From contig CAZHJZ010000003.1 in NCBI GenBank assembly GCA_964532495.1, positions 67,747-131,746 of the forward strand: 64,000 bases of DNA. Direction: 5' to 3'. This document shows, in pieces, positions 2,758-57,745 of this stretch (position 1 is its first letter; each line of letters opens with the position of its first letter). Origin of the DNA: an uncultured Candidatus Saccharibacteria bacterium (GTDB lineage: Bacteria > Patescibacteriota > Minisyncoccia > Phycocordibacterales > UBA9973). The position numbers and the translations under genes were made by a program. The notes below the pieces were generated by a model. The model had not been told where the DNA came from, did no database searches, and saw nothing but the letters and a program-made list of their open reading frames with translations.

Positions 2758-4221
2758 ATGGCGATTAAAAAAATTAAACCAGGAGGCAAACTAAACAACA
2801 ACGCAAAACTGACAGACGATGAGCATGCCCTGCTCGCCCTTTCTCCACTCGATGGTAGGTACAAAAACACTACCAAAAAGCTGGGAGAGTATTTTAGCGA
2901 ATTTGCACTGCAAAAATACCGCTTATTGATTGAGGTTTTATACCTTGAAGATTTTTGCCGGATTACTGGTATTGATATATCGGGACGCCAGCAGAATATA
3001 TTGGATACTATAGTGCCGAATTTTTCCCGCGCAGATGCTAAGCGCATTAAAGAAATCGAAAAAGGCAAAAAGAACAGCAAAGGAATAATAACAGTGCCTG
3101 GCATTAACCACGACCTTAAATCAGTAGAAGTATTTTTGCGTGAAAAATTAACTGCGTTAAAGTTTAATAACAAAATTCTGGGCGCTATTCATTTTGGCCT
3201 CACCAGCGGCGATATCGATAATATCGCCAGAACGTGGATGCTGGCTGACGCTACGAATATTATGATGAAAGACACCTACGCAGTGATAGACAGGCTAAAA
3301 GCAGATTGCGAAGATTATGCCAGCTTGGCTATGGTTGCCAGAACTCACGGACAGCCGGCTGTGCCGACTACATATGGCAAAGAGGTAAACGTGTTTAAGC
3401 GTCGGCTTACCCATCAGTTAGGCACACTCACCGAGTTTACTTTCTCTGTAAAATTCGGAGGCGCGGTAGGAAACTTCAATGCGTTGCACGTTGCATACCC
3501 TAAGATTGATTGGGAGAAATTTGCTGATACATTTGTGGAGAAAATTTCAAACCGCATGATTTTTGGTAAATTACTGCGTGAAAAAGTTACTACGCAGATT
3601 GATTCCTACGATTCGCAGGCTGAATTTTTTGCCGTGTTTACTCGCTTCAATACTATATTGATGGGTTTATGCCATGATATGTGGGAAATGATAAGCGACG
3701 ATCTATTGCTTCAGAAAAAAGTAAAAGAAGAAGTAGGCTCATCCGCTATGCCGCAAAAGGTTAACCCGATTGATTTTGAAAATGCTGAAGGCAACCTGGG
3801 GTTGGCAAACTCGCAGTTTTTCCACTTTATGGCCAAACTTCCTATTTCTCGCCGTCAGCGAGATCTAACTGACTCGACGGTGGTTAGGAATATAGGTGTT
3901 GCATTGGGGCATAGTTTGATTGCATACCAATCGCTATTGAGAGGGTTGAATAAAATCAGCCCGAATGTTGATAAAATGCAGGCCCAACTTGAAGCAAACC
4001 CTGAAATAATTACCGAAGGCATACAGACGATTTTACGGAGAGAAGGTATGCCGGATGCTTACAATATGCTCAAAGACTTAAGCCGTGGAAACAAACTGAC
4101 ACGCGCAATGATTGCCCAGTTTGTACATGAGCTGAAAGTTAAGCAAAGCGTGAAGCAAGAGATTTTGGCAATTACGCCGCAAAATTATTTGGGGTATGCC
4201 AAAAATTTAGCCTGGCAATAG
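2758..4221 (+). CDS. purB: adenylosuccinate lyase
   Basis: Fumarate-lyase signature SSAMPQKVNP, TSGDIDN, HGQPAVPTT; ~487 aa long-type PurB. Confidence 0.9.
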   Translation: MAIKKIKPGGKLNNNAKLTDDEHALLALSPLDGRYKNTTKKLGEYFSEFALQKYRLLIEVLYLEDFCRITGIDISGRQQNILDTIVPNFSRADAKRIKEIEKGKKNSKGIITVPGINHDLKSVEVFLREKLTALKFNNKILGAIHFGLTSGDIDNIARTWMLADATNIMMKDTYAVIDRLKADCEDYASLAMVARTHGQPAVPTTYGKEVNVFKRRLTHQLGTLTEFTFSVKFGGAVGNFNALHVAYPKIDWEKFADTFVEKISNRMIFGKLLREKVTTQIDSYDSQAEFFAVFTRFNTILMGLCHDMWEMISDDLLLQKKVKEEVGSSAMPQKVNPIDFENAEGNLGLANSQFFHFMAKLPISRRQRDLTDSTVVRNIGVALGHSLIAYQSLLRGLNKISPNVDKMQAQLEANPEIITEGIQTILRREGMPDAYNMLKDLSRGNKLTRAMIAQFVHELKVKQSVKQEILAITPQNYLGYAKNLAWQ

Positions 4222-5658: not shown

Positions 5659-6357
5659 ATGAAATATTCCCCCGAAACTCCTTTAAAAGTATTCGTATTT
5701 TTTCAAAACGGCGCAAGCGGCATTCGCTATTGCATGGAACATGATCCGTACTACGCTACCTCAAAAAAGTATACAGTAGTTGGCGTGTTTACTGATAACA
5801 AAAATGCCACGGCGCCTCCCTACTTTACAGAAAAAGGAATACCAACTTTTTGTCTGGATGTAGATGACTTCTATGCCCCATTCGGCGTACGGCCCAAAAA
5901 AGATCCTGATTTCAAAATTCGCGAAGAATATTGCAAGCAGGTATATGAAATGATTAAGGATCTCGACTTCGACCTTATATTATTTTCCGGTTTTGATTTG
6001 CTTATCACCAAATCGCTGATTGATCCGTATCCAAAACAGATCATCAACGAGCATCCTGCCGATGTACGTCCGCAGGAAAATGGCAAACCTAAATACGCTG
6101 GCCTGCATGACAAGCCCGTACAGTTGGCCATTGATGCTGGTGAGAAAGTTCTCTACTCAAGCGTTATATTCGTTGAAGGAACAGAAGCCGATACCGGAGC
6201 TATCGTATGTGTTTACGATGAAGAAGGTGTTACGGTTGATACCCAGCAATTTACTACTACGCAGCACCGCGAGCAGCTTAAGCCCTTCGGCGGAAAGTCG
6301 ATCCAAAAAGCATTGCATATGATTTGCGACGAAGAAATTGCTATCGGCGTTGAATAA
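5659..6357 (+). CDS. purN: divergent phosphoribosylglycinamide formyltransferase-like (formyl_trans_N fold)
   Basis: EKGIPTFCLD and IINEHPADVRP...AGLH align to PurN motifs (AGIPTFVLD; IINIHPSLLP..GLH); sits between purB and purD. Confidence 0.55.
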   Translation: MKYSPETPLKVFVFFQNGASGIRYCMEHDPYYATSKKYTVVGVFTDNKNATAPPYFTEKGIPTFCLDVDDFYAPFGVRPKKDPDFKIREEYCKQVYEMIKDLDFDLILFSGFDLLITKSLIDPYPKQIINEHPADVRPQENGKPKYAGLHDKPVQLAIDAGEKVLYSSVIFVEGTEADTGAIVCVYDEEGVTVDTQQFTTTQHREQLKPFGGKSIQKALHMICDEEIAIGVE

Positions 6358-6517: not shown

Positions 6518-7867
6518 ATGAAAACAACCTCTTTCAACATCCTCATTTTAGATAGTGGGGGCCGCGGTACTGCGCTAGCGCAGGCATTACGCGAAAGCAG
6601 TAAGAACAACAATCTTTTAGGTAGCCTCTATGTTGCTCCTGGCAATGCAGGTACAGCGCTTGTAGCGGAAAATGTACCCATTGGTATGAACGATTTCGAA
6701 GCGCTTAAAATATTTTGCTTACAAAAAGAAATTGATGTAATTATCCCTGGCTCGGAAGAACCGCTGGCTAATGGCATTAAAGATTTTTTTGCAAACGATC
6801 TGTCAACCAAAAGTATCTGCGTAGCAGGCCCGACCAAGGCAGCTGCTCAGATCGAATCAAGCAAATCCTTTGCGAAAGGGCTTATGCAAAAAAATGGCAT
6901 TCCGACTGCCGACTACCAGGTATTTACTCTGGATACTATTGCGGAAGGATTCGATTTTATTGATGAGTTTACTGGTCCGGTTGTTCTAAAAGCAGATGGC
7001 CTTGCCGGCGGCAAGGGTGTGATTATTTGCAAAGAAAACGGCGAAGCAAAAGAAACATTGAAAGCGATGCTTGAAGGCAAATTCGGCGCAGCGAGCGCTA
7101 CGGTTGTTGTTGAAGAATTTTTGGAAGGGATTGAATTTTCCGTGTTCGTGCTAACCAACGGCGTTGATTATTTTATTTTGCCGGTGGCGAAAGACTATAA
7201 GATGTCGCACAATGGGAATACTGGATTGAATACCGGTGGCACAGGAGTTGTTTCTCCGCTTCCATTTATTACATCATCCTTTATGCAGAAAGTTGAAGGG
7301 CGTATTATCAGGCCGATATTGCAGGCAATGCAGAATGAGAAAACGGCGTTTGCTGGCTTCCTCTACGGCGGACTGATTAAGGTTGGTGATGACCCGTTTG
7401 TAATTGAATTCAATTGCAGGCTGGGTGATCCCGAAACTGAACTATCGCTGCTTCGTTGCAAAACCAATTTCCTTGAATTGCTGCTTGCATATAAAGGTGG
7501 CACTTTGAAAAGCGTTGAAGATTTGGGCGACAAAGCCGGCTACAAAGTTGCAGTTGTAATTATGGACGAAGGTTACCCTGAAACCGTAAAACATAAAGGC
7601 AGAATAATAGAACCAAGCGACCCATTGCTACACAATTCTAATTTTATTATTTCCGGCCTTCAGATGAATGCCGAAGGAAAATTAGTTGTAACCAGCGGCC
7701 GTATTGGCGTATGTATCGGCAGCGATCCGAGTTCTCTTGCCTTCGCGAAACGGAATGCGGATGAAAACGCAGAAATTGTAATGGAAGCGCTTGGACCTGG
7801 GTTCCGTTACCGTACAGATATTGGCGATGATATTATTTCGCTTCAGTCGCAAGTTGCAGCTAAGTAA
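6518..7867 (+). CDS. purD: phosphoribosylamine--glycine ligase
   Basis: ILILDSGGRGTALA, VAPGNAGTA, ATP-grasp core (VLKADGLAGGKGV), PurD C-domain. Confidence 0.9.
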   Translation: MKTTSFNILILDSGGRGTALAQALRESSKNNNLLGSLYVAPGNAGTALVAENVPIGMNDFEALKIFCLQKEIDVIIPGSEEPLANGIKDFFANDLSTKSICVAGPTKAAAQIESSKSFAKGLMQKNGIPTADYQVFTLDTIAEGFDFIDEFTGPVVLKADGLAGGKGVIICKENGEAKETLKAMLEGKFGAASATVVVEEFLEGIEFSVFVLTNGVDYFILPVAKDYKMSHNGNTGLNTGGTGVVSPLPFITSSFMQKVEGRIIRPILQAMQNEKTAFAGFLYGGLIKVGDDPFVIEFNCRLGDPETELSLLRCKTNFLELLLAYKGGTLKSVEDLGDKAGYKVAVVIMDEGYPETVKHKGRIIEPSDPLLHNSNFIISGLQMNAEGKLVVTSGRIGVCIGSDPSSLAFAKRNADENAEIVMEALGPGFRYRTDIGDDIISLQSQVAAK

Positions 7868-7934: not shown

Positions 7935-8693
7935 TTATTTCTCACTCTCCCACAATTTTTTAAATACTTCTCTCATGTTGTGCGCCAATACCGCATCATG
8001 AATTTCTACAAGATAGAACGGCCGCTGTCCGGTCACTACGAGAATAATATAATCTCCGCATATCCACTGTGTGCCGGTGAATTGATTCTCCCCTTTCCAA
8101 AATTTGATGAATCGCTTCTCCGCATATTTTCCTTCCATCATGTCTTCGGCGGCAGATTTGTTGCTGAAGAGTTTCAGTACCATTTCTTTCGGAGCGCGAT
8201 TCCATTCCCAATCAATAATGTGCTTGAAGTGTTCAACATACGTATGATCTTGAAAGCCCCAATATGTCAGGTCATGCATCTGCATGCTTTGATGCCATCG
8301 CGGAATAGCTTCGTACAGATACGATTCAAGATCTGCCTCGTCAACGAATCGGATTTTTGGAATTGAAAACGTTTTGGATTCTGGAATATTTTTGAGAACT
8401 TCTTGGAGTTCGTGGATGGAATTTTCTTTTTCTTTCAATACTTCGTGTTCACGCGAAATGATTTTCTCAAGTTCTTCTTGCCGCGCAGGCATGTAGTAGA
8501 GTACTTTGCCGCCAAGGTCTTCGACGATCAAGCCTTTTTCCTGCAATTCCTTCGCTACGCTATATACAGTTGTGCGATTGATCTTGGTCAGCCGAGAAAC
8601 TAGCGCTGGAGCGATCTTGCCCCGTTCAAGTATTAGTTTATAGATGATTTGCTCTTTATTACCGAGTCCAAGCTTCTCCAAGATTTTTTCCAT
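7935..8693 (-). CDS. TrmB-family transcriptional regulator (paralog 1)
   Basis: N-terminal wHTH GLGNKEQIIYKLILERGKIAPALVSRLTKINRTTVYSVAKELQEKGLI plus TrmB-type C-domain; paralog of 15262..16044. Confidence 0.7.
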   Translation of the reverse strand: MEKILEKLGLGNKEQIIYKLILERGKIAPALVSRLTKINRTTVYSVAKELQEKGLIVEDLGGKVLYYMPARQEELEKIISREHEVLKEKENSIHELQEVLKNIPESKTFSIPKIRFVDEADLESYLYEAIPRWHQSMQMHDLTYWGFQDHTYVEHFKHIIDWEWNRAPKEMVLKLFSNKSAAEDMMEGKYAEKRFIKFWKGENQFTGTQWICGDYIILVVTGQRPFYLVEIHDAVLAHNMREVFKKLWESEK

Positions 8694-8862
8694 ATAAGCT
8701 TACTGTAGCAGAGTTGTTGGAAAAGTGCCAACAGTATTTGCAGAAATATGGTTTATATATTGATAAATAAAGGTATTTTAGTCACATATTTATTGACATT
8801 ACGTAGAATTATGGCATTCTAAGAGAAAAGAATCTAATTTCCTCACTCTTTAATACAAATAT

Positions 8863-9477
8863 ATGGAAAAGAAAAAATTCTATGAAGGCTATGGCAAGCA
8901 ACTGTCTTTCATCTATCATCTCTATCCCCGCACTTGGAAGTTTACCGGTTCATTTTATTTAGCAGTGCTTTTTGGGATATTGGCACGGGATTCTATATTT
9001 AACGAACCTAGATCAATATGGCTTACTTTGCTGATGATTCTTGTAATTGCAGTATCTTGGATGTTCCGTCTTGCATATCTATACCAAATTTTTGCAATGC
9101 ACTATGAATACTACGGAAAAGGCTTTTTTGTGAAAAGATGCTGGGTATATGGCCGGAGGTTTTTTAAAAAAATACTAGTCTACCTAAGAGTTGCCGGTGC
9201 CATCATTATATTTATTTTGTATGCAGGAATTACTCTTTCTGTCCTAATGTGGACAGGACCTATAGTAATTGGAACTTTTGGTACCTGTATGTGGCTAGGT
9301 TTAATGATCTACGATATTGCCTTATCGCACGGAATTGAAGAACACATAAGCATACTGATCGGATTCACAGAAGTTTGTATCTACCTAGGTTTGGTTATTG
9401 TCCCCATAGACTTATATGGAGAGAAATTCCTTAAATGGTGGTTCGGCCTTTACGAGAAAATTGGTGAATTAGTGTAA
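8863..9477 (+). CDS. polytopic membrane protein, hypothetical
   Basis: 204 aa with ~6 hydrophobic helices; first gene of the 8863-11895 operon. Confidence 0.45.
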   Translation: MEKKKFYEGYGKQLSFIYHLYPRTWKFTGSFYLAVLFGILARDSIFNEPRSIWLTLLMILVIAVSWMFRLAYLYQIFAMHYEYYGKGFFVKRCWVYGRRFFKKILVYLRVAGAIIIFILYAGITLSVLMWTGPIVIGTFGTCMWLGLMIYDIALSHGIEEHISILIGFTEVCIYLGLVIVPIDLYGEKFLKWWFGLYEKIGELV

Positions 9478-9561
9478 TTAAAACGGAGATACTTCGGTAT
9501 CTCCTCATTCTTCAGCCCACGAGCATTCGCTGGCTGATTATGGGATAATGGGTTTACCAAT

Positions 9562-10137
9562 ATGAAAACAATCATCGATGTGAGTACCGACCAGGAAGTG
9601 CTTATCAATCAGGATAGTTTGCCTCTTATGATCCACGGACAGGATCGTTCGGGTGCGTCGTTCTTTACTATCTCGCTAGCCGCTCAGTTTCACGCTGCCG
9701 GAAACAAGCTGCTTATCTTCACTGCCTTTCAAATGGCAAAAGAAGAATTTTTGAATCAAGTTGCGGAGACAGTAGACAAAGTGTTTTATCTGGAATCCGA
9801 AAACGATTTTGAAAAAGCAAAAGAATTTCAGACCATCTATGTTCAAAGCGGCAATGTTGATCTGTTTATGAAAATACTTTCGCAAGCAACTGACAGAATT
9901 GTGTTTGTAAAAAATATAGAATCGATTGATCAGGATATTTTTACTGAACTATCGAGACACCCATTTATTGTTTCTGGTGACGTAGAAGTGAATCCAAAAC
10001 AAAAAGTTTTTCTTGATCATGCATATGCAACAAAAATACTCTTCTCCTCTCTTCCTGATGTAACCCTTCCCGCGTTGGCTAAATACCAGGCTTTCCTTCA
10101 AACAAAAAGCGCCGAACACATTATTGCTCTAAATTAA
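9562..10137 (+). CDS. hypothetical protein with degenerate RecA/KaiC-like P-loop
   Basis: LMIHGQDRSGASFFTISLAAQ resembles Walker A (GxxxxGK[ST]) but lacks the Lys/Thr; DRIVFV Walker-B-like hydrophobic-Asp; 7 nt upstream of the next gene. Confidence 0.4.
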   Translation: MKTIIDVSTDQEVLINQDSLPLMIHGQDRSGASFFTISLAAQFHAAGNKLLIFTAFQMAKEEFLNQVAETVDKVFYLESENDFEKAKEFQTIYVQSGNVDLFMKILSQATDRIVFVKNIESIDQDIFTELSRHPFIVSGDVEVNPKQKVFLDHAYATKILFSSLPDVTLPALAKYQAFLQTKSAEHIIALN

Positions 10138-10143
10138 TATCAT

Positions 10144-11895
10144 ATGAATCAAAACTGTCAGGACTGTAAAAAAGAATTTGTGATTGATGCTGAAGACCAA
10201 TCATTTTACGAACGAATGAAAGTCCCCGCTCCGACATTTTGCCCATCATGCCGATGGAAGCGTCGCGCAGCGTATCGTAACGAAGGGAAACTATTTCGAG
10301 TACAGAATGCTTTCACTGGAGAAACTATTTTTTCATTGTTCCCGCCCGAAGCTGGATTGAAAGTCGTAACGCAGGAACAATGGTTCTCAGATTCATGGAA
10401 CGCCATGGACTACGGCCGCGACTATGATTTCTCCCGAAACTTTTTCGAGCAGCTGTTTGAGTTGTACAAAGACGTGCCTGTCTATAACCTGAACGTAAAG
10501 CAGATGATCAACAGCCCATACTCCGCTAACGCTTCATTTCAAAAGAACTGCTACCTTGTTTTTAATGCTAGTGAAAATGAAAATTGCATGTACGGCAATG
10601 GAGTGGATTTTTGTCGCGACTGCGTTGATGCCTCCTGCATCAATCATTGCGAACGGTGCTACGAAGGATTCTGGCTAGAGAATTGTTACAAGTGCCACTT
10701 CACCATCTTGAGCGTAGATTGCCAGAATGTCTTGTTCTCTCGCGACTGTCTGGGATGCACGGACTGCTTTGGCTGCACCAACCTCCGAAAGTCGTCTTAC
10801 TGTATTTTCAACCAGCAGTATTCCAAAGAGGAATATGAGGCCAAGATCGCAGAAATGCGGTTGGATACTCATGAAGGAGTAACTGCTGCTCGGCAGGCCG
10901 CCCGCGCCTTCTGGAAAACTCAGCCCAACAAATACCACCAAGGTCTCAAGAATGTGAACTCCACTGGTTCATATGTTTCACACTCCAAAAATGTCCGTGA
11001 CAGCTACCTTGTCCGAGAGAGTGAGAACATGCGCTACTGTCAGAACATGCTCGTTCCAGCCAACAAAGACTGCTACGATACTTCATTTTGGGGAGAAAAG
11101 ACGGAGTTGAACTATGAAACAAGCGTTTGTGGAGAGAACTCGTACAACCTGAAATTCTCATGGGACTGCTGGCCGAATGTGCGTGAAACTGAGTATTCAA
11201 TGCATTTGAAGTCTTCCTCCGACTGTTTTGGGTGTGTTGGCATGAAGAAAGCCCAGTACTGTATCTTGAACAAGCAGTACACCAAGGAAGAATACGAAAA
11301 ACTTGTTTCACGGATAAAGGAACAGATGAATGAGATGCCATATATCGGACATGATGGTTCCGTGTATCGCTATGGCGAGTTCTTCCCTATCGACCTTGTT
11401 CCGTTCGGCTACAACAATTCCCTGGCCCAAGAATATTTTGAGATCACTATAGAAGCCGCAGAGAGAAAAGGCTACCCTTGGATCGAAGTAGATCGCGGCG
11501 ACTATGCGATCACCCTAAAAGCATCCGAACTTCCCTCTTCTATAGATGAGGTGTCGGATACCATCCTCAAGGACATTATCGAATGTGAAACATGCGGTTA
11601 TGCCTTCCGTATCATGCCTGAAGAGCTGACATTCCTCCGCAAAGAAGACCTCCCGCTTCCCCGTTCGTGCAATAATTGCCGCCACAAGCAAAGATTGCTC
11701 GACCGACTTCCCGCAGATCTGCATGAAACACATTGTATGTGTGCTGGAGAAAAAGATGCCACAAATCAGTATCAAAACTCAGTTTCACACCCGCATGGAA
11801 GCGTGCCGTGCCGTGAAAGCTTTCAAACAGGATACTCACCGACCTCGGGGGCGATCGTGTACTGCGAAAGTTGCTATCAGCAAGAGACGGTTTAA
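10144..11895 (+). CDS. cysteine-rich protein with N- and C-terminal zinc-ribbon modules (paralog A)
   Basis: N-term CQDC-x24-CPSCRWKRR..RNE; C-term CETCG-x24-CNNCRHKQR; central run of ~9-12-residue Cys-pair repeats; no signal peptide. Confidence 0.6.
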   Translation: MNQNCQDCKKEFVIDAEDQSFYERMKVPAPTFCPSCRWKRRAAYRNEGKLFRVQNAFTGETIFSLFPPEAGLKVVTQEQWFSDSWNAMDYGRDYDFSRNFFEQLFELYKDVPVYNLNVKQMINSPYSANASFQKNCYLVFNASENENCMYGNGVDFCRDCVDASCINHCERCYEGFWLENCYKCHFTILSVDCQNVLFSRDCLGCTDCFGCTNLRKSSYCIFNQQYSKEEYEAKIAEMRLDTHEGVTAARQAARAFWKTQPNKYHQGLKNVNSTGSYVSHSKNVRDSYLVRESENMRYCQNMLVPANKDCYDTSFWGEKTELNYETSVCGENSYNLKFSWDCWPNVRETEYSMHLKSSSDCFGCVGMKKAQYCILNKQYTKEEYEKLVSRIKEQMNEMPYIGHDGSVYRYGEFFPIDLVPFGYNNSLAQEYFEITIEAAERKGYPWIEVDRGDYAITLKASELPSSIDEVSDTILKDIIECETCGYAFRIMPEELTFLRKEDLPLPRSCNNCRHKQRLLDRLPADLHETHCMCAGEKDATNQYQNSVSHPHGSVPCRESFQTGYSPTSGAIVYCESCYQQETV

Positions 11896-11952
11896 TAAAA
11901 TAAGAGCGATGCTGCGTAGCAGCATCGCTCTTTTGTATATACTTCTGTCGTT

Positions 11953-12582
11953 TCACGAACTTTGTTTAATTCTAATTATCTCAAATGTGTAGGTGCCAAG
12001 GAATTCTTTTTTGTAAGAGAGTGAAACCTCAAGGCGTACTCCAGCGGGGATGCCTTTCTGCTGTTTCTCGCTAATCAAAAAATCATAGAGCTCCTGTTCC
12101 TTTAGGCTGATAATGGCCTTTAGAGTGTCCAGTCTATCGGACAAAATGTCCTTTTTGTTATTTGCAGTCTCTATCAGTGACCAGGTAAGGGTAGCTAAGG
12201 CTGACAGCGAATCCGATCTGGTTCCATATTCTTCTATGAGCTTAAGCACCTCATTCTCCTGAATGCCGGATTCTGATAAAAGTGCCACTGAGTCATTGTA
12301 AAGATTTGCATACCCGGTGTACCTCTTTGTGGTTGCCATCAGTTCAGTCACTACTGTTTTTACTGATTCCAAGGATTGCTCCGTAGTATCTTTTTGAAAG
12401 TAGAGGCGCACCAATTCATTTTTATAGATATTCCAATACTCTTTTTGTATGGAATTAAGAACAATGGGCCGTTTCAGTACCGTGTCATGGTTGGCCGCAG
12501 CGGATTGCTTTTGGAAAGTTTGTGCATACGGGGCAGTCAAAAAGGCGCAGGCAGTCAGCAAAAGTAGGATTCGTTTCTTCAT
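11953..12582 (-). CDS. secreted hypothetical protein
   Basis: Signal peptide MKKRILLLLTACAFLTAPYAQ; start chosen at internal Met of ORF 11953..12642. Confidence 0.45.
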   Translation of the reverse strand: MKKRILLLLTACAFLTAPYAQTFQKQSAAANHDTVLKRPIVLNSIQKEYWNIYKNELVRLYFQKDTTEQSLESVKTVVTELMATTKRYTGYANLYNDSVALLSESGIQENEVLKLIEEYGTRSDSLSALATLTWSLIETANNKKDILSDRLDTLKAIISLKEQELYDFLISEKQQKGIPAGVRLEVSLSYKKEFLGTYTFEIIRIKQSS

Positions 12583-12688
12583 GGTAAATAATTTTTTTTT
12601 CTTTACTTTGCCCTTTTTCCCAGCGTAAGTCAACCATGACATATTGACATAAAATCTTTATGAAGATATTCTCAAGAAAAACTAAAGA

Positions 12689-13165
12689 ATGACTAACAAC
12701 CGAAAAACCCACAGTGCCGCTGTAAAAGTCCTCCCTATTTGGTACACATACCGAGTGCAGATCGCCCTTGAACTTTCCAGGCTTCGCTTCCGGCCAGACT
12801 TTGTTGACCGAGTACTTGAATTTAAAGAGAAATTCGCCGGTACGACAAAATGGCTTATAAGTCAGGAACCTGATGAAGAAACGTATTCGGCACCCGAGAC
12901 ATCTTCCGCATGGGGAAAACATTTACGCCGCTGGCAAAAAAAACTATTGAACGAGAAAAAGAAATTGTTCAAATCATGCCCCGTTTTCTCTGACGCGCAG
13001 TGGGGTGACGATAAAGAGATATTATTCACTATGCTCTTCATGAGCATAACAAGCGAACTCAATTCGCTTGAAAAACCAGAAATTCCTTTTATCCAGCAAT
13101 TCAAAAAAATAAACAAAAGCAAGGCAAAGAAAAAGAAAAAGCGCAAAAACAAATCCCGGACCTAA
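12689..13165 (+). CDS. hypothetical protein with highly basic C-terminal tail
   Basis: 158-aa ORF ending KSKAKKKKKRKNKSRT; terminator overlaps its stop. Confidence 0.35.
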   Translation: MTNNRKTHSAAVKVLPIWYTYRVQIALELSRLRFRPDFVDRVLEFKEKFAGTTKWLISQEPDEETYSAPETSSAWGKHLRRWQKKLLNEKKKLFKSCPVFSDAQWGDDKEILFTMLFMSITSELNSLEKPEIPFIQQFKKINKSKAKKKKKRKNKSRT

Positions 13166-13185
13166 GGCCCGGGATTTTATTTTTG
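13153..13185. terminator. bidirectional terminator between convergent genes
   Basis: atcccgg..ccgggat hairpin with a T run. Confidence 0.6.
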
Positions 13186-13189
13186 ATCG

Positions 13190-14869
13190 CTATTGAATTT
13201 CCTGCTGATAGCAAGGCTCGCAATATACCTGCTCTGTTCGTTCTGGTGCATAGCTTGTCTCAAATTGATTGGAGCAGCTGCCACCCTGGTGACCGATATG
13301 TTCTTTGATAGTGCACATGCATGATCGCTTCCAGAGTTCGCGCGGCGTTCGTTTTTCCATTCGAGCTTTGTGTCGGCACTCGAAATCTTTATGCGGGATC
13401 GGCAGATGCATTCTCTTGTAGAAGTCGAGTTCAGCTTTGATCAGACGATAATTTTTACCGCAATCACTGCAAGTAAAGATATCTTGTAGAATCGAATCAG
13501 CAACTCCCTCTATCGTTTTTGGCATATCCGCTTCTTTCATTGTTTCTTTGCCGAATGTACCAGTGTTTGATTCTCGCCAACTAAATCCTTGAGCGAGTGC
13601 TTGTTCCTTTTCCATTGGGAAAAAGTCATGAGCCAAAGTCTCGTTGTAGCCGAAAGGTGCGATATCCGGCGGGAAGAACTGACCATAATTTTTGTCAGTT
13701 TTAAGTTGGTCTTCAATGTTACTTCGCAGTTCAAGATAGTCTTCTTTTGAATATTCTTTATTCAAAATCATATATGACCCTTTTCTGACGGCAATACATC
13801 CAAGAGCGTTAGATAGGTGGTGGCAACTTTCACAATATTCAACTTCGTTGCAGTAAAAGACAAAAGCGGAATTTTTTAATCTGCTCCCCTCCAGCGCTCC
13901 CATGATGTTGTAACCGAAAGAAGGCTTGTAGTAGTAGTTGTTGCAATCCATGCTGTCGGTCGGGCTTTCGGTGTCAGTCATATACGAACAATTTTTTGCA
14001 TCGTATGTATCGTAGAGTAATACCCCATCATGACAGTTGTACAGATAATTCCCAGTAACGTTGTTGCACTTTACTTGTGAGGCGAATTTTCTTATAGCTT
14101 GGCTTTTCAATATCTCAAATTCTTTTTTTGCCTCCTCGATACTTTCAAAGCTTGAAAGTATTTCTTTCTTCTTCTTTTCAAATTCTTCCTTAGAATATTT
14201 TACATTAAGTATCGCATTGGATACATGTCTCCCATTTGTAGAGAAAATACAGTTCTGGCTGTCTCGCATGTTGTAACAAAAGAGAAGATCGCTTGAAGAT
14301 TGGCATTGTTCAGAAAACATGCAGTTAAAACACTGTCTGCAATCAATACACTCATAACACAATTCAGATTCATGTAGAAAGGCGCAATCTACGCATTGCT
14401 TGTCGCGCTGAAGCAATCTTCCGTAAAGACAATCTTCATTGTAATCTGCGGCAAAAATAAGATAGCAGTCTTTGTTTTCTGCCGAGCCGTTTGTGTAGTC
14501 GCTCCGAACATTATTAAAGGCCATAAGGCTTAGTCGAGGAACTTTCTGTTGCAAGCTTTTATATTGTTCAAAAAAAGGCTTAGTTAGATCATAGTCTACG
14601 CCATAATCTTTGGGATCCCATTTATCACTCCACCAGCACTCATGACAGTACACAGTATATGGCGAGCTTGGCGAATAAACAGAAATCATATCTTTCTTAC
14701 AAAGATCGCAGGGTCGTTTGTAGAAAGTTCGTTCATTTCTGAAAACCAGCCGTTGTTTCATTCGACAATCCGGACAGTGTATAGGTTCCGCGACTTTCAT
14801 TTGCGTATAAAAAACCTGATCTTCAGGACGGATTTCAAATTGTGCGCTGCAAGTTTTACAGGTGGTCAT
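13190..14869 (-). CDS. cysteine-rich protein with N- and C-terminal zinc-ribbon modules (paralog B)
   Basis: N-term CKTC-x24-CPDCRMKQR..RNE; C-term CSDCG-x~24-CRHKARM; same architecture and Cys-repeat core as 10144..11895. Confidence 0.6.
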   Translation of the reverse strand: MTTCKTCSAQFEIRPEDQVFYTQMKVAEPIHCPDCRMKQRLVFRNERTFYKRPCDLCKKDMISVYSPSSPYTVYCHECWWSDKWDPKDYGVDYDLTKPFFEQYKSLQQKVPRLSLMAFNNVRSDYTNGSAENKDCYLIFAADYNEDCLYGRLLQRDKQCVDCAFLHESELCYECIDCRQCFNCMFSEQCQSSSDLLFCYNMRDSQNCIFSTNGRHVSNAILNVKYSKEEFEKKKKEILSSFESIEEAKKEFEILKSQAIRKFASQVKCNNVTGNYLYNCHDGVLLYDTYDAKNCSYMTDTESPTDSMDCNNYYYKPSFGYNIMGALEGSRLKNSAFVFYCNEVEYCESCHHLSNALGCIAVRKGSYMILNKEYSKEDYLELRSNIEDQLKTDKNYGQFFPPDIAPFGYNETLAHDFFPMEKEQALAQGFSWRESNTGTFGKETMKEADMPKTIEGVADSILQDIFTCSDCGKNYRLIKAELDFYKRMHLPIPHKDFECRHKARMEKRTPRELWKRSCMCTIKEHIGHQGGSCSNQFETSYAPERTEQVYCEPCYQQEIQ

Positions 14870-15261
14870 AATTATTTAGTATAACTTATATATCATTAAC
14901 TCTATAAAGCAGATAAGATGTGTGCACCAACTTCTCTACTTTAAAAGCCAATGCTTGGCTAATGTAGCTCAGTTCGACCATTTCTCGGAGGAAAGATGGC
15001 CACTACTACCCATAAAATCACGATAATGAAAATTATGATGGCGACTATTTTCATAAGGGATGTGTTACGTGTTAAATAGTTCATCTATTCGACAGACAGA
15101 TAAACTAACACAAGACTAGTATAGCAGATCCAAATTTATATGTCAATAGATATCGTCAATTTAACTTCAGAAATAAGCCTAAAAATAAGGTGATTTGCAC
15201 TAAAAAAGAATTTTGTGGAAGAATATTGACACAAATACCCTCCATAAAGTATACTTAAAAC

Positions 15262-16044
15262 ATGAAAAAAGACGATGTGAAACTCAAAAATGCCCTAGTT
15301 GAAATAGGTCTTTCTGATAAAGAAGCCGGAGTATATTTAGGGCTCCTGGAATTGGGTCGCGGCACTGTTTCTCAGATTTCTCGCAAAGCGAATATTAATC
15401 GTACAACCGGCTACGATATTTTGGATACATTAGCGCAAAAGGGTTTGGTGAGTATTTCTGGAAAAGAACCAAAACAAGAATATACTGCTGAGTCCCCCGA
15501 AAACTTGAGTACCTTTATCGCGCATGAAATCCAAACAAAGCATGAAGCACTTCGAAAAACAGAAAGCTTGATTCCTGAATTGAAATCTCTTCACAATGTA
15601 ACCGATAGACCCCGAGTAAGATTTTATGAAGGAATCGAAGGACTTACTCAGGTATATGAGGACACACTCACCTCTCATGAAACGATCCGCGCCTTTGCAA
15701 CAGTAGATGACATGCATGCCGCGCTGCCCAATTATTTTCCAAAATACTATAAGCGGCGAGCAAGTGCCGGCATTGAAATACGGGCGATCATACCTTCTAC
15801 TGAGATCGGAAAGGAACGTGCATTGCGTGATAAAGAGGAAGCTCGCGAAAGTGCTCTCGTGCCAGCGGATAAGTTTTACTTTTCTCCTGAGATCAACGTC
15901 TATGACAACAAAGTAATGATCGCTTCGTGGAGAGAAAAGCTCGGCATCATTATCGAATCAAGCGAGGTTGCCGATGCTATGAAAAAGATATACGAGCTTG
16001 CGTGGGCTGAAGCAAAACGACTCGATCGAGATATTCGACAATAA
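15262..16044 (+). CDS. TrmB-family transcriptional regulator (paralog 2)
   Basis: wHTH LSDKEAGVYLGLLELGRGTVSQISRKANINRTTGYDILDTLAQKGLV; same domain order as 7935..8693. Confidence 0.7.
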   Translation: MKKDDVKLKNALVEIGLSDKEAGVYLGLLELGRGTVSQISRKANINRTTGYDILDTLAQKGLVSISGKEPKQEYTAESPENLSTFIAHEIQTKHEALRKTESLIPELKSLHNVTDRPRVRFYEGIEGLTQVYEDTLTSHETIRAFATVDDMHAALPNYFPKYYKRRASAGIEIRAIIPSTEIGKERALRDKEEARESALVPADKFYFSPEINVYDNKVMIASWREKLGIIIESSEVADAMKKIYELAWAEAKRLDRDIRQ

Positions 16045-16069
16045 ATCAAAGTAATAATATACTTTATGT

Positions 16070-16486
16070 ATGGAAGGATCATTTCGCCAAGGTGCACAAA
16101 AACCAAACTCATCCCGAGAGATGTCGCAAGCGGAAGCGCACAAAAAATTTATTGCCGAACATATTGCTAAGGAAGGCATCCAAGGCACTATCTTAGGAAT
16201 GCATGATTATCGTTCTGATTTGCGAGAACTTGGATCTCACTTCTCCAAAAAAACGCCGCAAGAATTCTTTGAGCACATCAAAGCTCACCCCGTCCGATCA
16301 TTTAAGGATTATTTTAGAAATGTGGTTGCTACAAATTCAGATCTCCATAGAAAGATCCTCAATGATATGGCTCTTTATCCTGGCATCGTAAATAGATTCG
16401 AAGGAAATATTTTAATGCTTAATCAGGCCAAGACCCCAGAAGAAGCACGGTATCAATTTGAAGAGCTCAAGAACTTTTTCTTATAA
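16070..16486 (+). CDS. hypothetical protein
   Basis: 138-aa ORF immediately downstream of the TrmB paralog; no recognisable motif. Confidence 0.35.
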   Translation: MEGSFRQGAQKPNSSREMSQAEAHKKFIAEHIAKEGIQGTILGMHDYRSDLRELGSHFSKKTPQEFFEHIKAHPVRSFKDYFRNVVATNSDLHRKILNDMALYPGIVNRFEGNILMLNQAKTPEEARYQFEELKNFFL

Positions 16487-16532
16487 TTGACTCGCACCAT
16501 GCCTTGTAGTAGGCTTTAAAAAAAGTTCTACT

Positions 16533-17057
16533 ATGATAACAAATTTTACAATCAAACGAGTTATTGGCACCCTTACCCTCGAAGATGTTTCTTCTATCTG
16601 CTTTCAGCTTGGAGGAAAAGCAAGTTCGGTTTCATATTTTTGGGACATGGAAAATACCATTGCTTCCGGGGATTTCAGAGTTGAAATTAGCCGAAAGCAA
16701 TTGCTATCGCTATCAGGATGCAAAGTGCATTTTGTTACTGAGAGTACAAAACTCTCACACAGCGTTGATGAGAAATTCAATTTCTTGTGCATTGTTGTTC
16801 AGCAGCCAAACAAAAAAATTCATTGCGTAAACTCTAAAGATCTTGAATTCAAGAAGCATATCGATCTTGCCCCTCCCTATGACAAGTCTGTGCCCGTGTT
16901 GCTTATGTTTGAAGTACCGTGCGGACGCGACATTGACTATCTTTTTTTGATTGAGCCGCATGACGATGTAACTTCTCTTTCGTTTGAAGAAACAGACAAG
17001 ATACCAACACCGGTAGTTTTATCGAGTGAAGAAGAATTTGGATTTTCATACAGCTAG
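16533..17057 (+). CDS. hypothetical protein
   Basis: 174-aa ORF followed by a strong terminator. Confidence 0.35.
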   Translation: MITNFTIKRVIGTLTLEDVSSICFQLGGKASSVSYFWDMENTIASGDFRVEISRKQLLSLSGCKVHFVTESTKLSHSVDEKFNFLCIVVQQPNKKIHCVNSKDLEFKKHIDLAPPYDKSVPVLLMFEVPCGRDIDYLFLIEPHDDVTSLSFEETDKIPTPVVLSSEEEFGFSYS

Positions 17058-17078
17058 CATTTTATATTTAGGTATAGC

Positions 17079-17110
17079 AAAAGCCCGGTCTAAAACCGGG
17101 CTTTTTTATT
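17079..17110. terminator. bidirectional rho-independent terminator
   Basis: aaaagcccggt-ctaaa-accgggctttttt. Confidence 0.8.
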
Positions 17111-17114
17111 GCTG

Positions 17115-18115: not shown

Positions 18116-18643
18116 ATGTTCTTAAAACCGTATATCCATTTCCCCTACTCGAACGATTTTACCGAAATTAAGATAGAAGAAATATGTGAAGCACTGGGAG
18201 GAAACGTTAAAACGCTTTCCTGCTCATATACAAACGAAAAAGAAATTGAGCATGCAAGCTTTGCTGTCAGCCTTAAGCAAAAGGAGTACGAACTTATTTC
18301 TGGTGATTGTACGAAGTTCATGCATGTGAGCCCGCTGTGCCGTCCCCTATATGAACGCAATATGCTTGTAGAGTTTACCTGCATCGTTACCCTTTCTTCA
18401 TATTCACGCATGCTCCTCATTCATGATGCCATGCCTGGAAAAGACGGTTTGATAACGAAGTCAGTAGCTTTATATAGCGGCAAGCCCCATCTTTCATTTT
18501 TTGAAAACAAACGCGGACATTCCTTCAACTATCATTTCTACTTGCCGGACTCTAAGCCCCGAGTTGAAGTAACAGTCTTTAAATTTACACCGATACCACA
18601 AAATAAAATACGAACGAGTTCAGATGAATTTTCTGATAATTAA
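18116..18643 (+). CDS. hypothetical protein
   Basis: 175-aa ORF with no recognisable motif. Confidence 0.35.
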   Translation: MFLKPYIHFPYSNDFTEIKIEEICEALGGNVKTLSCSYTNEKEIEHASFAVSLKQKEYELISGDCTKFMHVSPLCRPLYERNMLVEFTCIVTLSSYSRMLLIHDAMPGKDGLITKSVALYSGKPHLSFFENKRGHSFNYHFYLPDSKPRVEVTVFKFTPIPQNKIRTSSDEFSDN

Positions 18644-18680: not shown

Positions 18681-20243
18681 TTATTTTACCCCGTGCTTGC
18701 CTCGGATTCTTGCTAGCTCTTCTTCTTCCGTTTCTTCCTTCGCTTTTTTGCCTTCCTCCCCTTTTGCTTTCAATTCGGCGTCGGTGAGGGTGTTCAATTC
18801 GAGTGTTCTCTTTTTCAAATATTCAATTTCATTTTTATCCGGATCTTCCAGTGATTCTTCGAGGAGAGTGTGGAGTATCCATCCCATGCGAGGGCCGGGG
18901 CGAATCCCAAGTTCTTTGATGAGCACTTCCCCATTGATCTTGAGCATGCCTACTGAAGTCGGTGCGCGCAATGCTTCCTCTATCATCGCATGGTATTTAC
19001 GGAGACGATATGGCGCTTCAACTTTCTTCATGCCCACACGGTCGCACTCGCGGATCTGCATCAATTCCCAAATATGTTCCCTGCCGATATTTACTATCGT
19101 TCGGCGGACCGCTGAAAGTGTGATTGCTTCTGTATCCGAGAAGAACATATGATAGCGGACAAGCTTCACTACGAGATCAGAAAGTTCGCGCGGATATTTC
19201 AATCGCTCCATAATCTTTGCTGCCATGCGGCCGCCCACTACTTCATGGCCATAAAATGTATATGCCTTTTTAGATCCAGGTCGTCGGGTTCGCGGCTTTC
19301 CTATGTCATGAAAGAGCGCGGCAAGCCTGATAGAGAGAGGCCAATCTTTTCCTGAAGCATGTCCCAGAGCTTGCAGTAGATGCTCGAACACATCATATAT
19401 ATGTACGCCTCCCTGCTCGCAGCCAATACCCTCACGAAGTTCGGGCACTATGTGTTCAAGCAATCCAAGCTTCTCCAATAGTCCCACTCCAATCATCGGA
19501 TCAGTAGATTCTATAATCTTCGTAAATTCATCACGTTTTCGTTCCCACGAAATATGTTTGAGAAGACCAGAGTTTTCCACAACCCCCTGCATCGTTTCTA
19601 CTGAGATGGCAAAACCTAATTGTGTGGAAAACCTTACCGCCCTCAACATGCGCAAGGCATCTTCTCTGAATCGTTCATCTGCGCTCCCTACTGTTACGAT
19701 GACTTTGTCCTTCAAGTCACGGACACCATTAAATTCATCTACAAGAAGTCCTTGAGATGGATTGTATGCCATAGCATTGACCGTAAAGTCACGTCTTTTT
19801 AAATCATCAAGTAAATTAAGGCTAAAAGACACATCATCAGGGTGCCGACTGTCACTATACCCTGCCTCTAACCTGTATGTTGTTATCTCTATGACCTTTA
19901 TCGTCTCATCGGTCTCCTCTTCGTTTACAATTGCTACTGTCCCAAAGATGTTTTCATAGACCGTTTTTGGATATAATGCTTGAATTTGAGCTGGAGTAGC
20001 GTTTGTTGTAATATCCCAGTCTTTGGGTTTTTTGTTCAGCAGAAGGTCTCGTACGCATCCACCGACGATGTATGCTTCGTATCCCGCACTTTCAAGTACG
20101 CCAAGTGTCGTTATGACTGATCCTGGTATTTGTTCTTTATTTATTGTGCCGTGGCCTTGGTTTTCCAATGTGACCATTAAATTGTGTGCGGGTAGGGAGA
20201 ATCGGACTCCCGTCTCATCCTTGGCAAGGACGTGTTCTACCAC
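18681..20243 (-). CDS. cca: CCA-adding tRNA nucleotidyltransferase with HD domain and Lys/Glu-rich C-terminal tail
   Basis: GGCVRDLLL..DWDITT polymerase-beta head motif; HDIGK HD domain; C-terminal KAKGEEGKKAKEETEEEE extension. Confidence 0.85.
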   Translation of the reverse strand: MVEHVLAKDETGVRFSLPAHNLMVTLENQGHGTINKEQIPGSVITTLGVLESAGYEAYIVGGCVRDLLLNKKPKDWDITTNATPAQIQALYPKTVYENIFGTVAIVNEEETDETIKVIEITTYRLEAGYSDSRHPDDVSFSLNLLDDLKRRDFTVNAMAYNPSQGLLVDEFNGVRDLKDKVIVTVGSADERFREDALRMLRAVRFSTQLGFAISVETMQGVVENSGLLKHISWERKRDEFTKIIESTDPMIGVGLLEKLGLLEHIVPELREGIGCEQGGVHIYDVFEHLLQALGHASGKDWPLSIRLAALFHDIGKPRTRRPGSKKAYTFYGHEVVGGRMAAKIMERLKYPRELSDLVVKLVRYHMFFSDTEAITLSAVRRTIVNIGREHIWELMQIRECDRVGMKKVEAPYRLRKYHAMIEEALRAPTSVGMLKINGEVLIKELGIRPGPRMGWILHTLLEESLEDPDKNEIEYLKKRTLELNTLTDAELKAKGEEGKKAKEETEEEELARIRGKHGVK

Positions 20244-20331
20244 TAAACCATACCCGCATAGTTATCTAGTAACGCGGATCATTATATACTGTGTTTCACA
20301 ATTTCGCAATTCGTGTATAATAGACCGGCAT

Positions 20332-20403
20332 GCACCCATGGTGAAATGGATATCACAACGGTCTTCGGAACCGTTATTGGGGGTTCGAATCCCTCTGGGT
20401 GCA
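20332..20403 (+). tRNA. tRNA-Arg (anticodon TCG)
   Basis: Cloverleaf: acceptor GCACCCA/TGGGTGC, anticodon stem ACGGT/ACCGT with loop CTTCGGA, T-arm GGGGG-TTCGAAT-CCCTC; CCA not encoded. Confidence 0.8.
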
Positions 20404-21608: not shown

Positions 21609-21679
21609 CGGGGTGTAGTATATCGGTAGTATACTTGTTTTGGGAACAAGAGGGCCGAGTTCGATTCTCGGCACCCCGA
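21609..21679 (+). tRNA. tRNA-Pro (anticodon TGG)
   Basis: Acceptor CGGGGTG/CACCCCG, anticodon stem CTTGT/ACAAG with loop TTTGGGA, T-arm CCGAG-TTCGATT-CTCGG; D-arm pairing imperfect. Confidence 0.65.
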
Positions 21680-57716: not shown

Positions 57717-57745
57717 TTGCTAACCCGTATCTCATATGGGATACT
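57717..57745 (+). promoter_or_regulatory. conserved promoter (TTGCTA-17-GATACT), copy 2 of 3
   Basis: ttgcta-acccgtatctcatatgg-gatact, then tttcactat ATG. Confidence 0.55.

Follow-up and report, generated by a model that had tools for sequence, protein, structure and literature searches.

Which proteins are encoded between 7.9 and 17.1 kb of the DNA analyzed here, and do the genes of this region form one system? The window (the whole stretch of 64,000 nucleotides, from contig CAZHJZ010000003.1 of an uncultured Candidatus Saccharibacteria bacterium) carries in this region the genes for two large cysteine-rich proteins, CysA and CysB, two TrmB-type regulators (TrmB1 and TrmB2), a small protein with a degenerate Walker-A-like loop (f28), and several smaller proteins (Table 1). 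A preliminary description of the sequence had considered them an island bounded by two paralogous regulators and suggested a coherent system, perhaps for metal or redox sensing, defense or regulation. All ten open reading frames (ORFs) of that description were recovered at identical coordinates and on the same strands. The evidence base so far is entirely computational.

CysA and CysB Belong to a Large Family Restricted to Patescibacteria

CysA and CysB align end to end with 33% identity (E = 1e-103) and contain 35 and 36 cysteines, respectively, confirming the proposal that the two large proteins are paralogs. In a word-index search CysA retrieved more than 7,900 proteins. The best 120 of these matches are full-length (approximately 586 aa), 58–88% identical and all labelled hypothetical, and they derive from Paceibacterota, Nomura-, Staskawicz-, Minisyncoccia and related Patescibacteria. 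CysB returned 1,981 matches and forms its own orthogroup, with the other 119 of its top 120 matches at 65–81% identity. A HMMER search of 1.84 billion cluster representatives identified 4,631 clusters (50% identity) at E ≤ 1e-3, 2,000 of them at E ≤ 1e-30, and in GTDB species representatives the family was confirmed at no fewer than 594 loci. Where source and record names are informative, nearly all of them point to Patescibacteria lineages, and 2.9 million viral contigs contained only one fragment of the family. The family is very large, restricted to Patescibacteria, slowly evolving and uncharacterized.

Many of the record titles (loci L001, L003, L004 and others) describe third-party annotation (TPA) metagenome bins as 'uncultured Candidatus Saccharibacteria', and two name Gammaproteobacteria or Bdellovibrionales. 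The gene content of these bins matches Paceibacteria-type loci; the titles look generic or wrong and are unsuited to inferring taxonomic range.

For the analysis of gene neighborhoods the best 80 genomic loci (with labels such as L001) were taken with their 10-kb surroundings, in which ORFs were called, clustered and compared with the window genes. This sample contains 239 family genes in 129 arrays. Tandem arrays comprise up to seven complete genes, or up to nine copies detected by tblastn when partial copies are included (L029, L035, L071). The paralogs are 30–45% identical to each other and are ancient. Orthologs within the family evolve about as slowly as an aminoacyl-tRNA synthetase: between the same pairs of genomes, the best family identity averages 54%, compared to 56% for cysteinyl-tRNA synthetase (CysRS), and 51%, compared to 58% for DnaK.

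The preliminary description could not assign the two proteins to a described family, and our searches agree with it. The zf_Tbcl finger was the sole Pfam match for either protein, NCBIfam and PADLOC gave none, and PDB chains showed no significant sequence match, either with CysA as the query or with a 21-sequence profile. Among the PHROGs a single weak match was found, of the CysB core to phrog_15341, a family without assigned function. Literature searches yielded no description of the family. One CysB ortholog carries the JGI label 'ERCC4-type nuclease', for which no profile search provided support; all other source names inspected read hypothetical or uncharacterized. Taken together with the architecture described below, we consider the definition of this family to be highly probable.

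Paired Zinc Modules Are Predicted to Flank Two Duplicated Beta-Solenoids

The structure of CysA was modeled with AlphaFold2 (AF2) from a 138-sequence alignment of diverse representatives of the 50%-identity clusters. A shallow alignment of 21 close homologs had given a predicted local distance difference test score (pLDDT) below 50 in the core, and the deeper alignment was used instead; the resulting model has a mean pLDDT of 93.7 and a predicted template modeling score (pTM) of 0.92. From the N-terminus to the C-terminus it comprises a double zinc module, a pair of thin beta-solenoids that are duplicates of each other, an alpha/beta domain and another double zinc module, so that the anticipated ladder of cysteines in a solenoid between zinc fingers is indeed seen at high model confidence. 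Both repeated elements are detectable by profile comparison: core 1 (approximately residues 128–238) is homologous to core 2 (approximately 276–391; hhalign probability 99.9%, E = 4e-36), and the N-terminal module (1–80) is homologous to the C-terminal module (477–578; hhalign probability 99.6%, E = 1e-24).

Each terminal module consists of a zf_Tbcl treble clef, a basic helix (CRxxRRxxxRNERxLYxRxC) and a second ribbon that ends in VYCxxC. The motif C-x2-C-x24-C-x2-C-R, previously reported at both ends of both proteins, is exact at the two ends of CysA (C5/C8/C33/C36-R37 and C481/C484/C509/C512-R513) and at the N-terminus of CysB; at the C-terminus of CysB the third cysteine is replaced by D495. 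The N-terminal finger of CysA scores 29.2 bits against zf_Tbcl (PF13451, cut-off 24), that of CysB 25.3 bits as an isolated segment and 20.4 bits in a scan of the whole protein, and the C-terminal copies of the treble clef were detected by profile-profile comparison only. Among the 138 diverse members, the cysteines of the CysA N-terminal finger are 98–100% conserved, and the ligand columns of the C-terminal module 77–99%. The second ribbons have zf_Tbcl_2 (PF23477) as their top match, at sub-threshold scores (E-values of 5e-4 to 3e-3; gathering score 27 bits): 20.1 bits for the CysA tail (E = 5e-4), 19.4 bits for the CysB tail and 17.5 bits for the N-terminal second ribbon of CysB. The latter retains C54, C57, C75 and C78, which CysA lacks, and approximately half of the aligned family members keep these cysteines (50–80% Cys in the four ligand columns). 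The N-terminal second zinc ribbon is ancestral; CysB has kept it and CysA has lost it.

The zinc modules are mildly basic (family means of +2.4 and +5.1), and the remainder of the protein is acidic. When superposed with Foldseek, the finger on its own is similar to small 'zinc-ribbon domain proteins' of phages. A stand-alone ORF of 64 aa that consists of the treble-clef finger alone (CKKCDKEFLIREDDIEFYES...CPNCR) is present between the TrmB2 and CysB orthologs of locus L150, so that the finger also exists as a mini-protein in the same type of locus, as it does in phages. Neither CysA nor CysB, in the window copies, has a signal peptide or transmembrane (TM) segment, and both are therefore probably cytoplasmic. 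We propose that zinc has a structural role in these cytoplasmic proteins, and that it would occupy four terminal sites.

The short Cys-pair repeats of the core, estimated earlier at some 9–12 residues, have a period of exactly 12 with the pattern C-x2-C-x8. In CysA, the core cysteines at positions 136, 148, 160, 172, 184, 208 and 220 define a 12-residue coil, and secondary structure assignment (DSSP) of the high-confidence model places a strand every three residues. Near-invariant Cys and His residues are confined to the terminal modules. The core columns are 33–83% Cys, with C208 and C364 (93–96%) as exceptions, and substitutions are to Ser, Val or Leu at a spacing of three residues. We infer from this pattern and from the model that the core cysteines are small residues that line a very narrow solenoid interior rather than obligatory metal ligands, with Cys and Ser positions three residues apart likely forming a ladder that faces inward.

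The same ladder could be read as a site for metal or redox chemistry, in which stacked C-x2-C pairs bind a column of metals or clusters resembling Fe-S clusters, or in which the protein acts as a thiol redox buffer or sensor. A cysteine content of 6%, pairs that recur every 12 residues and hence stack along the solenoid axis, a C-x2-C-x2-C-x2-C segment (C202–C211, 75–93% Cys), and the location of CysA-type genes beside the stress genes dnaK and dnaJ are in agreement with such a role. However, the core columns vary as described above, and the substitutions are not to His or Asp, which is a core-packing pattern and not that of ligands. CysB lacks three of the four cysteines of the C202–C211 segment, and no Fe-S or metallochaperone family was matched in Pfam or NCBIfam. 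The free exchange of the core cysteines weakens the suggestion of metal or redox sensing through the core, and we regard this reading as improbable.

The most conserved element of the family is the solenoid cap, YCI[LF]NKQY[ST]KEEY, and the near-invariant residues show no evident catalytic motif. No solved structure resembles the whole protein: Foldseek gave weak fold matches only, with TM-scores of at most 0.09 against the PDB and at most 0.13 against BFVD. Among the closest known proteins are Cys-containing thin beta-solenoids, such as the insect antifreeze proteins (spruce budworm AFP, 1m8n) and the ryegrass ice-binding protein (3ult); the antifreeze protein of Tenebrio has a 12-residue repeat. 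The combination of secretion, a regular Thr/Ser ice-binding face and a significant structural match, by which a protein would be assigned to the antifreeze and ice-binding solenoids, is not found here. The left-handed beta-helix acyltransferases and gamma-carbonic anhydrases (LpxD, GlmU, Cam) are also among the nearest known systems, and the combination that would define membership here, Hexapep repeats in Pfam, 18-residue coils and a significant superposition, is likewise not found. That the solenoids stack end to end, or that the proteins polymerize into a cytoskeletal or scaffold filament of these ultra-small cells, in the manner of bactofilins or curli, seems to us less likely again than a role in metal or redox chemistry.

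PF13451 and PF23477, the latter matched by the terminal modules of CysA and CysB at sub-threshold scores, cover only the finger of approximately 40 aa; some 480 other residues, the duplicated solenoids and the symmetric arrangement of two modules fall outside of them. Solenoids and treble clefs are known fold classes, but a described protein with this combination of the two was not found, and the family does not fit into any kind of system characterized so far.

The Region Consists of Two Independent Units

The base composition of the region equals that of the rest of the window, and the region is therefore not a compositional island, or an island in the sense of horizontal transfer. It is flanked by housekeeping genes, purD upstream and the gene for the CCA-adding enzyme downstream. 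Promoter and terminator scans indicate that it holds five or more transcription units set apart by terminators; strong hairpins lie downstream of CysA, CysB and the two genes that follow TrmB2 (Table 1). The latter two genes are probably co-transcribed with TrmB2.

A single operon had been suggested for the membrane protein, f28 and CysA. This is supported for f28 and CysA, whose genes are 6 bp apart, and not for the membrane protein gene, which is set off from this pair by a gap of 84 bp and a hairpin. The membrane protein itself shows three strong hydropathy peaks in a Kyte-Doolittle scan, where six TM segments had been counted before, and has no match in Pfam, NCBIfam or PADLOC and no tblastn match in the 80 related loci. 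More generally, the membrane, f28, secreted and basic proteins and the two proteins encoded downstream of TrmB2 gave no significant family match and few matches far below threshold. For the membrane, secreted and basic proteins no homolog was detected in any related locus, and for the first of the downstream hypothetical proteins (hyp1) there was one weak match (L001). Neither these genes nor TrmB1 or the second downstream gene are conserved next to either of the Cys-rich orthogroups.

These data bear directly on the earlier idea of one co-regulated module for defense, sensing or regulation that would occupy the whole 7.9–17.1 kb between the two TrmB regulators. In its favor are the local gene arrangement in this genome, the divergent orientation of both regulators relative to outward-facing genes, and the near-identical relative L001, which keeps TrmB1, f28 and CysA together. 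In the L001 genome, however, approximately 77 kb of one contig (CAYVDC010000002.1, 27005–42690 versus 118881–131987) lie between the CysB ortholog and the CysA locus, and no TrmB gene is adjacent to this CysB ortholog. L001 is also the only locus in which a TrmB1 ortholog adjoins a CysA ortholog. The absence of conservation of the other genes, the division by terminators and the lack of a compositional signature also argue against a single module. A defense function finds no support either: PADLOC gave no match for CysA, CysB, f28 or the membrane, secreted and basic proteins, and only generic cross-matches of the helix-turn-helix (HTH) for the regulators, and the family is represented in viral contigs by the one fragment mentioned above. 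The single-module reading is largely refuted by the neighborhood data, and we rate it the least probable of all the alternatives considered here. The region instead consists of two independent units that lie side by side, TrmB2–CysB and f28–CysA, rather than one coherent system bracketed by duplicated regulators.

TrmB2 and CysB Form a Conserved Divergent Pair

Both regulators contain the N-terminal winged HTH of the TrmB family (PF01978) above the cut-off of 25.6 bits (Table 1). They are paralogs of the TrmB type, as proposed, with a distant relationship that is limited to the N-terminal 144 aa (30% identity, E = 7e-13). TrmB2 aligns to residues 7–130 of Pyrococcus furiosus TrmB (PDB 3qph; E = 0.0019), and the likeness to the TrmB and TrmBL1 proteins of Thermococcales comprises the winged HTH and the coiled-coil region that follows it. 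True TrmB is approximately 340 aa in length and has a C-terminal sugar-binding domain, whereas the window regulators are approximately 255 aa and this domain was not detected in either of them by Pfam at E ≤ 0.1. In agreement with this, the NCBIfam equivalogs TrmB, TrmBL1 and TrmBL2 gave 14–32 bits against cut-offs of 500–650, and neither regulator is a full-length equivalog.

The linkage of TrmB2 was analyzed in a metagenome scan with CysB (80 loci), in which orthologs (at least 50% identity) with 1 kb or more of upstream sequence were evaluated. A full-length TrmB2 ortholog (53–82% identity) is located upstream and divergent in 28 of the 45 CysB orthologs, within 1 kb in 26 of the 28, and beside none of the 21 more distant CysB paralogs. 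Of the 19 loci for which both flanks were available, 15 have kept TrmB2 and 8 have kept the syntenic gene for the CCA-adding enzyme. TrmB2 and CysB are therefore a conserved divergent pair. The linkage to TrmB regulators, presumed earlier for both Cys-rich genes, is conserved for TrmB2 with CysB and not for TrmB1.

Between TrmB2 and CysB lie two back-to-back sigma-70-type promoters, which match the promoter consensus better than any other site in the 9.5-kb region. The TTGACA..TAnnnT element of the CysB-facing promoter (searched as a regular expression) recurs at a similar distance in 20 of 27 aligned intergenic regions, 94–127 nt from the TrmB2 start codon (184 nt in L087). Only 6 nt separate the -10 box of the TrmB2 promoter from the ATG, and the TrmB2 mRNA is therefore probably leaderless or nearly so. 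The -35 box of this promoter is overlapped by the palindrome TTTGTG-N12-CACAAA, which has a single match in the 64-kb window (0.12 expected by chance; at least one match in 11 of 100 shuffles) and is present in 26 of the 27 aligned TrmB2–CysB intergenic regions. A divergent target gene and a palindrome in the shared promoter region are features that the TrmB2–CysB pair has in common with Thermococcales TrmB. To our knowledge, the palindrome is unlike any characterized site of the TrmB family.

We propose that TrmB2 would bind this palindrome, regulate its own expression and control the outward promoter that drives CysB. We consider regulation of CysB by TrmB2 slightly more probable than its absence.

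The leader ORF upstream of CysB in the window is not conserved; elsewhere an acylphosphatase-like gene or membrane-protein genes are found in its place. In TrmB2–CysB spacers of approximately 440 bp (L103, L117, L119, L134, L136, L141, L145), a protein of approximately 90 aa, acylphosphatase-like as judged by eye, is encoded ahead of the CysB ortholog. In this class the outward promoter drives the 90-aa protein first, and then the CysB ortholog.

CysA Relatives Are Linked to VirD4/HerA-Like ATPases

f28 is rare: a search of 5.8 billion sequences gave only eight homologs. Five loci were recovered; in L001, L014, L033 and L082 f28 adjoins family genes, and the fifth is a contig of 2.7 kb without a family gene. 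In L014 and L082, f28 lies between two family genes (CYS) within an ATPase-CYS-f28-CYS-ATPase-DnaJ operon. The degenerate P-loop recognized earlier in this protein is evident as HG-x3-SGAS (G-x4-SGAS/SGTS): SG[AT]S, F-x-K-N-x-E and S-G-D are invariant in the eight homologs, and the Walker lysine is present in none. In the absence of this lysine and of a Pfam or NCBIfam match for the window protein, f28 is not classified as a P-loop NTPase. The homolog in L033 has a sub-threshold match to CbiA/ParA (E = 0.004). We also considered f28 as a degenerate copy of the neighboring VirD4-like ATPase, and hhalign indicated no relation (probability 0.8%).

The dominant conserved neighbor of the family is a P-loop ATPase that matches TrwB_AAD_bind, T4SS-DNA_transf, DUF87/HerA and TraG-D_C. 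It occurs in two forms, one of approximately 490–520 aa and one of approximately 700 aa with a C-terminal zf_Tbcl_2 finger (49 bits), the model that the second ribbons of CysA and CysB match below threshold; PF23477, a 'probable treble clef', is found at the C-terminus of VirD4/TrwB-like ATPases of Patescibacteria. We identified 47 copies with Walker motifs, and their cluster of 61 members, which includes 14 membrane proteins without these motifs, is represented in 35 of the 80 loci. Of the 129 arrays, 25 are directly adjacent to an ATPase gene and 49 have one within three genes. These adjacencies are co-directional in 28 of 29 cases, with a median gap of 39 bp. The coupling proteins VirD4, TrwB and TraG are likewise often co-directional and near-contiguous with the genes of their substrates or relaxosome adaptors.

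Two recurrent gene contexts were observed. Context A consists of a PaaX-like gene on the opposite strand, DnaK, the ATPase of approximately 700 aa, CYS, sometimes f28, CYS and the ATPase of approximately 500 aa, followed by DnaJ and, at a greater distance, CysRS. The stretch from the first ATPase through DnaJ is tightly packed in L082, with gaps of 1–39 bp between its genes. In context B, SecD, SecF, a HARE-HTH protein, a membrane protein of 460 aa and a small TM protein precede the ATPase of approximately 490 aa, sometimes CutA, and the CYS array. Because the closest CysA orthologs occupy context A, between the two ATPase genes, the f28–CysA pair of the window looks like a displaced piece of the context A operon.

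The PaaX-like protein of context A (L014:3945–4517 on the minus strand; also L011, L016, L018, L022, L052, L069) is approximately 180 aa long, has a PaaX-type Cas2-like middle domain and an HTH, and is encoded divergently upstream of dnaK; in these genomes it may regulate the heat-shock response in place of HrcA. In context B (L029:830–2799; also L020, L034, L043), the protein of approximately 460 aa with N-terminal TM segments and the TM protein of approximately 172 aa have no Pfam match. Both genes are located immediately upstream of the soluble ATPase and downstream of SecD/SecF and the HARE-HTH protein, and the proteins may be the membrane partners of the ATPase.

In a survey of 2,918 Patescibacteria genomes published in 2025, 5,713 VirD4 homologues were counted, of which just 148 lie close to virB4, and exaptation of these homologues to other functions was raised as a scenario that the survey did not exclude (PMC12102498). 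The linkage between Cys-rich proteins and ATPases described here was not found in the text of that study.

VirD4- and TraG-type ATPases are the canonical recruiters of secretion substrates, and their tight operon linkage to the family could therefore mean that the Cys-rich proteins are cargo. They would be effectors that the ATPases recruit for export to the host cell on which these episymbionts live, by way of the Patescibacteria type IV secretion system (T4SS) or a different channel, with the many paralogs as a diversified effector repertoire. The multi-copy arrays, the membrane proteins adjoining the ATPase in context B, and the very conserved C-terminal tail VYCExCYQQE, which could serve as a recognition signal, are compatible with this explanation. 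Evolution at the slow pace of housekeeping genes, with each paralog group conserved (as among the CysB orthologs), would on the other hand be unusual for host-facing effectors, and the predicted zinc-clamped modules and rigid solenoids would make poor substrates for unfolding. The ATPases that were checked lack the N-terminal TM anchor and are rarely near virB4 in Patescibacteria (PMC12102498). The window proteins, as noted, have neither signal peptide nor TM segment. We consider export unlikely, if marginally less so than a metal or redox function.

A Tentative Role as Adaptors of Soluble ATPases

The role that we favor over export is that of non-enzymatic, rigid adaptors stabilized by zinc. 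In this model, the basic zinc modules would serve to contact either nucleic acid or the ATPases, which carry a finger of a similar type, and the paralogs would act as specific partners or substrate receptors of soluble VirD4-like ATPases exapted from type IV secretion. This is the weakest step of our explanation, and we put it forward as a doubtful proposal. Our confidence is highest for cytoplasmic proteins with structural zinc, lower for the regulation of CysB by TrmB2 and lowest for the adaptor role; for the explanation as a whole, which combines the family and its architecture, the TrmB2 unit and the adaptor role, it falls somewhat short of an even chance.

Several observations weigh against this explanation. 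The majority of the arrays (80 of 129) have no ATPase gene within three genes, and no homolog of the VirD4-like ATPases is encoded in the 64-kb window, which implies that the partnership is not obligatorily encoded in cis. No characterized homolog of the family supports any function. Binding of zinc and of nucleic acid, like the inward-facing Cys ladder, is predicted from sequence patterns and DSSP, and the near-invariant acidic and amide residues D83, D95, D162, D312 and N376 leave room for an enzymatic role. Regarding the TrmB2 unit, the palindrome overlaps the promoter, and its conservation may in part reflect that of the promoter; the linkage of TrmB2 is perhaps partly plain synteny among related Paceibacteria, as the unrelated CCA gene is also kept in 41% of loci.

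More ambitiously, and with still less confidence than in the adaptor role itself, the solenoid proteins and the orphan soluble VirD4/HerA-like ATPases could together form an ATP-driven machine specific to Patescibacteria, in which the up to nine ancient paralogs per genome would serve as interchangeable adaptors or cargo receptors docked through their zinc fingers. In a bolder version of this idea, the stacked C-x2-C ladder would hold metal ions in a linear column.

Features of the Region and Other Genes of the Window

The coordinates of the features of the region are collected in Table 1. An Rfam scan of the window yielded only four tRNAs, all outside of the region.

Table 1. Features identified between 7.9 and 17.1 kb of the window.
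Feature	Coordinates	Strand	Evidence or remarks
TrmB1, TrmB-type winged-HTH regulator, 252 aa, lineage-specific distant paralog of TrmB2	7935–8693	-	Pfam TrmB, 32.6 bits
Small multi-pass membrane protein, 204 aa, lineage-specific	8863–9477	+	Kyte-Doolittle scan
Hairpin downstream of the membrane-protein gene	9485–9504		Hairpin scan
f28, 191 aa, degenerate Walker-A-like loop HGQDRSGAS	9562–10137	+	Rare accessory gene
CysA, member of the Patescibacteria Cys-rich family, 583 aa	10144–11895	+	
CysA, predicted N-terminal treble-clef zinc finger zf_Tbcl (C5, C8, C33, C36), then basic helix	10153–10272	+	PF13451, 29.2 bits
CysA core 1, predicted beta-solenoid of approximately eight 12-residue C-x2-C-x8 coils; cap formed by the YCIFNQQYSKEEY motif and a helix	10492–10821	+	AF2 model, DSSP
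CysA core 2, second predicted beta-solenoid, internal duplicate of core 1; cap YCILNKQYTKEEY	10924–11277	+	hhalign and model
CysA, predicted C-terminal double zinc module: treble clef (C481, C484, C509, C512) and zf_Tbcl_2-like ribbon	11572–11892	+	
CysA, residues of the C-terminal zf_Tbcl_2-like ribbon			C531, C533, H549, H551, C556, C574, C577
Bidirectional terminator-like hairpin, 14-bp stem, between the convergent CysA and secreted-protein genes	11902–11932		
Probably a secreted protein or a lipoprotein; read from an internal Met, it has the signal-like MKKRILLLLTAC	11953–12642	-	Sequence
Promoter-like site ahead of the small basic protein gene	12644–12672		
Small basic protein, 158 aa, Lys-rich tail	12689–13165	+	K+R 35, D+E 18
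Terminator-like hairpin 3' of CysB	13151–13177		
CysB, 559-aa paralog, separate conserved orthogroup	13190–14869	-	
Small hydrophobic leader ORF, 31–41 aa, MKIVAIIIFIIVILWVVVAIFPPRNGRTELH, between the CysB-side promoter and CysB	14959–15084	-	
Sigma-70-type promoter TTGACA-17-TATACT, directed at CysB	15118–15146	-	11 of 12 consensus positions
Conserved palindrome TTTGTG-N12-CACAAA across the TrmB2 -35 box; putative operator bound by TrmB2	15212–15235		
Sigma-70-type TrmB2 promoter TTGACA-18-TATACT	15226–15255	+	
TrmB2, TrmB-type regulator, 260 aa	15262–16044	+	Pfam TrmB, 56.9 bits
Two hypothetical genes, 138 and 174 aa	16070–17057	+	Hairpin at 17079–17105 ends the unit

Just upstream of the region, the window encodes purB (adenylosuccinate lyase, 2758–4221), a purN-like protein with a formyltransferase domain (5659–6357) and purD (GAR synthetase, 6518–7867). 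Patescibacteria are generally described as unable to make nucleotides, and genes for de novo purine synthesis are unusual there. The ORFs at 16533–17057 and 18116–18643 encode hypothetical proteins of approximately 175 aa with five cysteines each, which are weak paralogs (24% identity, E = 1e-6) without a family match; a DinB-like gene and a cold-shock gene lie between them. The tRNA gene at 20187–20257 (minus strand) overlaps the 5' end of the longest ORF of the CCA-adding enzyme (18681–20243, minus strand, with a GTG start at 20243), and the true start codon of this enzyme is therefore probably located further downstream. The other tRNAs are located at 20332–20403, 21609–21679 and 23246–23316. 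Two further proteins of this Patescibacteria genome have domains of a eukaryotic flavor. One, of 600 aa (53082–54884, minus strand), contains an HTTM domain, from the family to which vitamin-K-dependent carboxylase belongs; the other, of 626 aa (57736–59616, plus strand), is a beta-propeller of Kelch repeats with CARDB as its C-terminal domain.

Implications for Patescibacteria

In Patescibacteria genomes of approximately 1 Mb, nearly every retained gene is expected to matter, yet many of these genomes keep several copies of a 1.7-kb family gene, up to about nine in some loci, conserved about as tightly as a tRNA synthetase. Entry points into this part of microbial dark matter are the confidently predicted new architecture, the operon linkage to VirD4-like ATPases and, for one orthogroup, a TrmB-type regulator of its own with a putative operator. 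A role for such ATPases outside type IV secretion was left open by the 2025 survey (PMC12102498). If the ATP-driven machine outlined above were to exist, it would explain what thousands of exapted homologues of the type IV coupling protein (T4CP) do in these minimal genomes.

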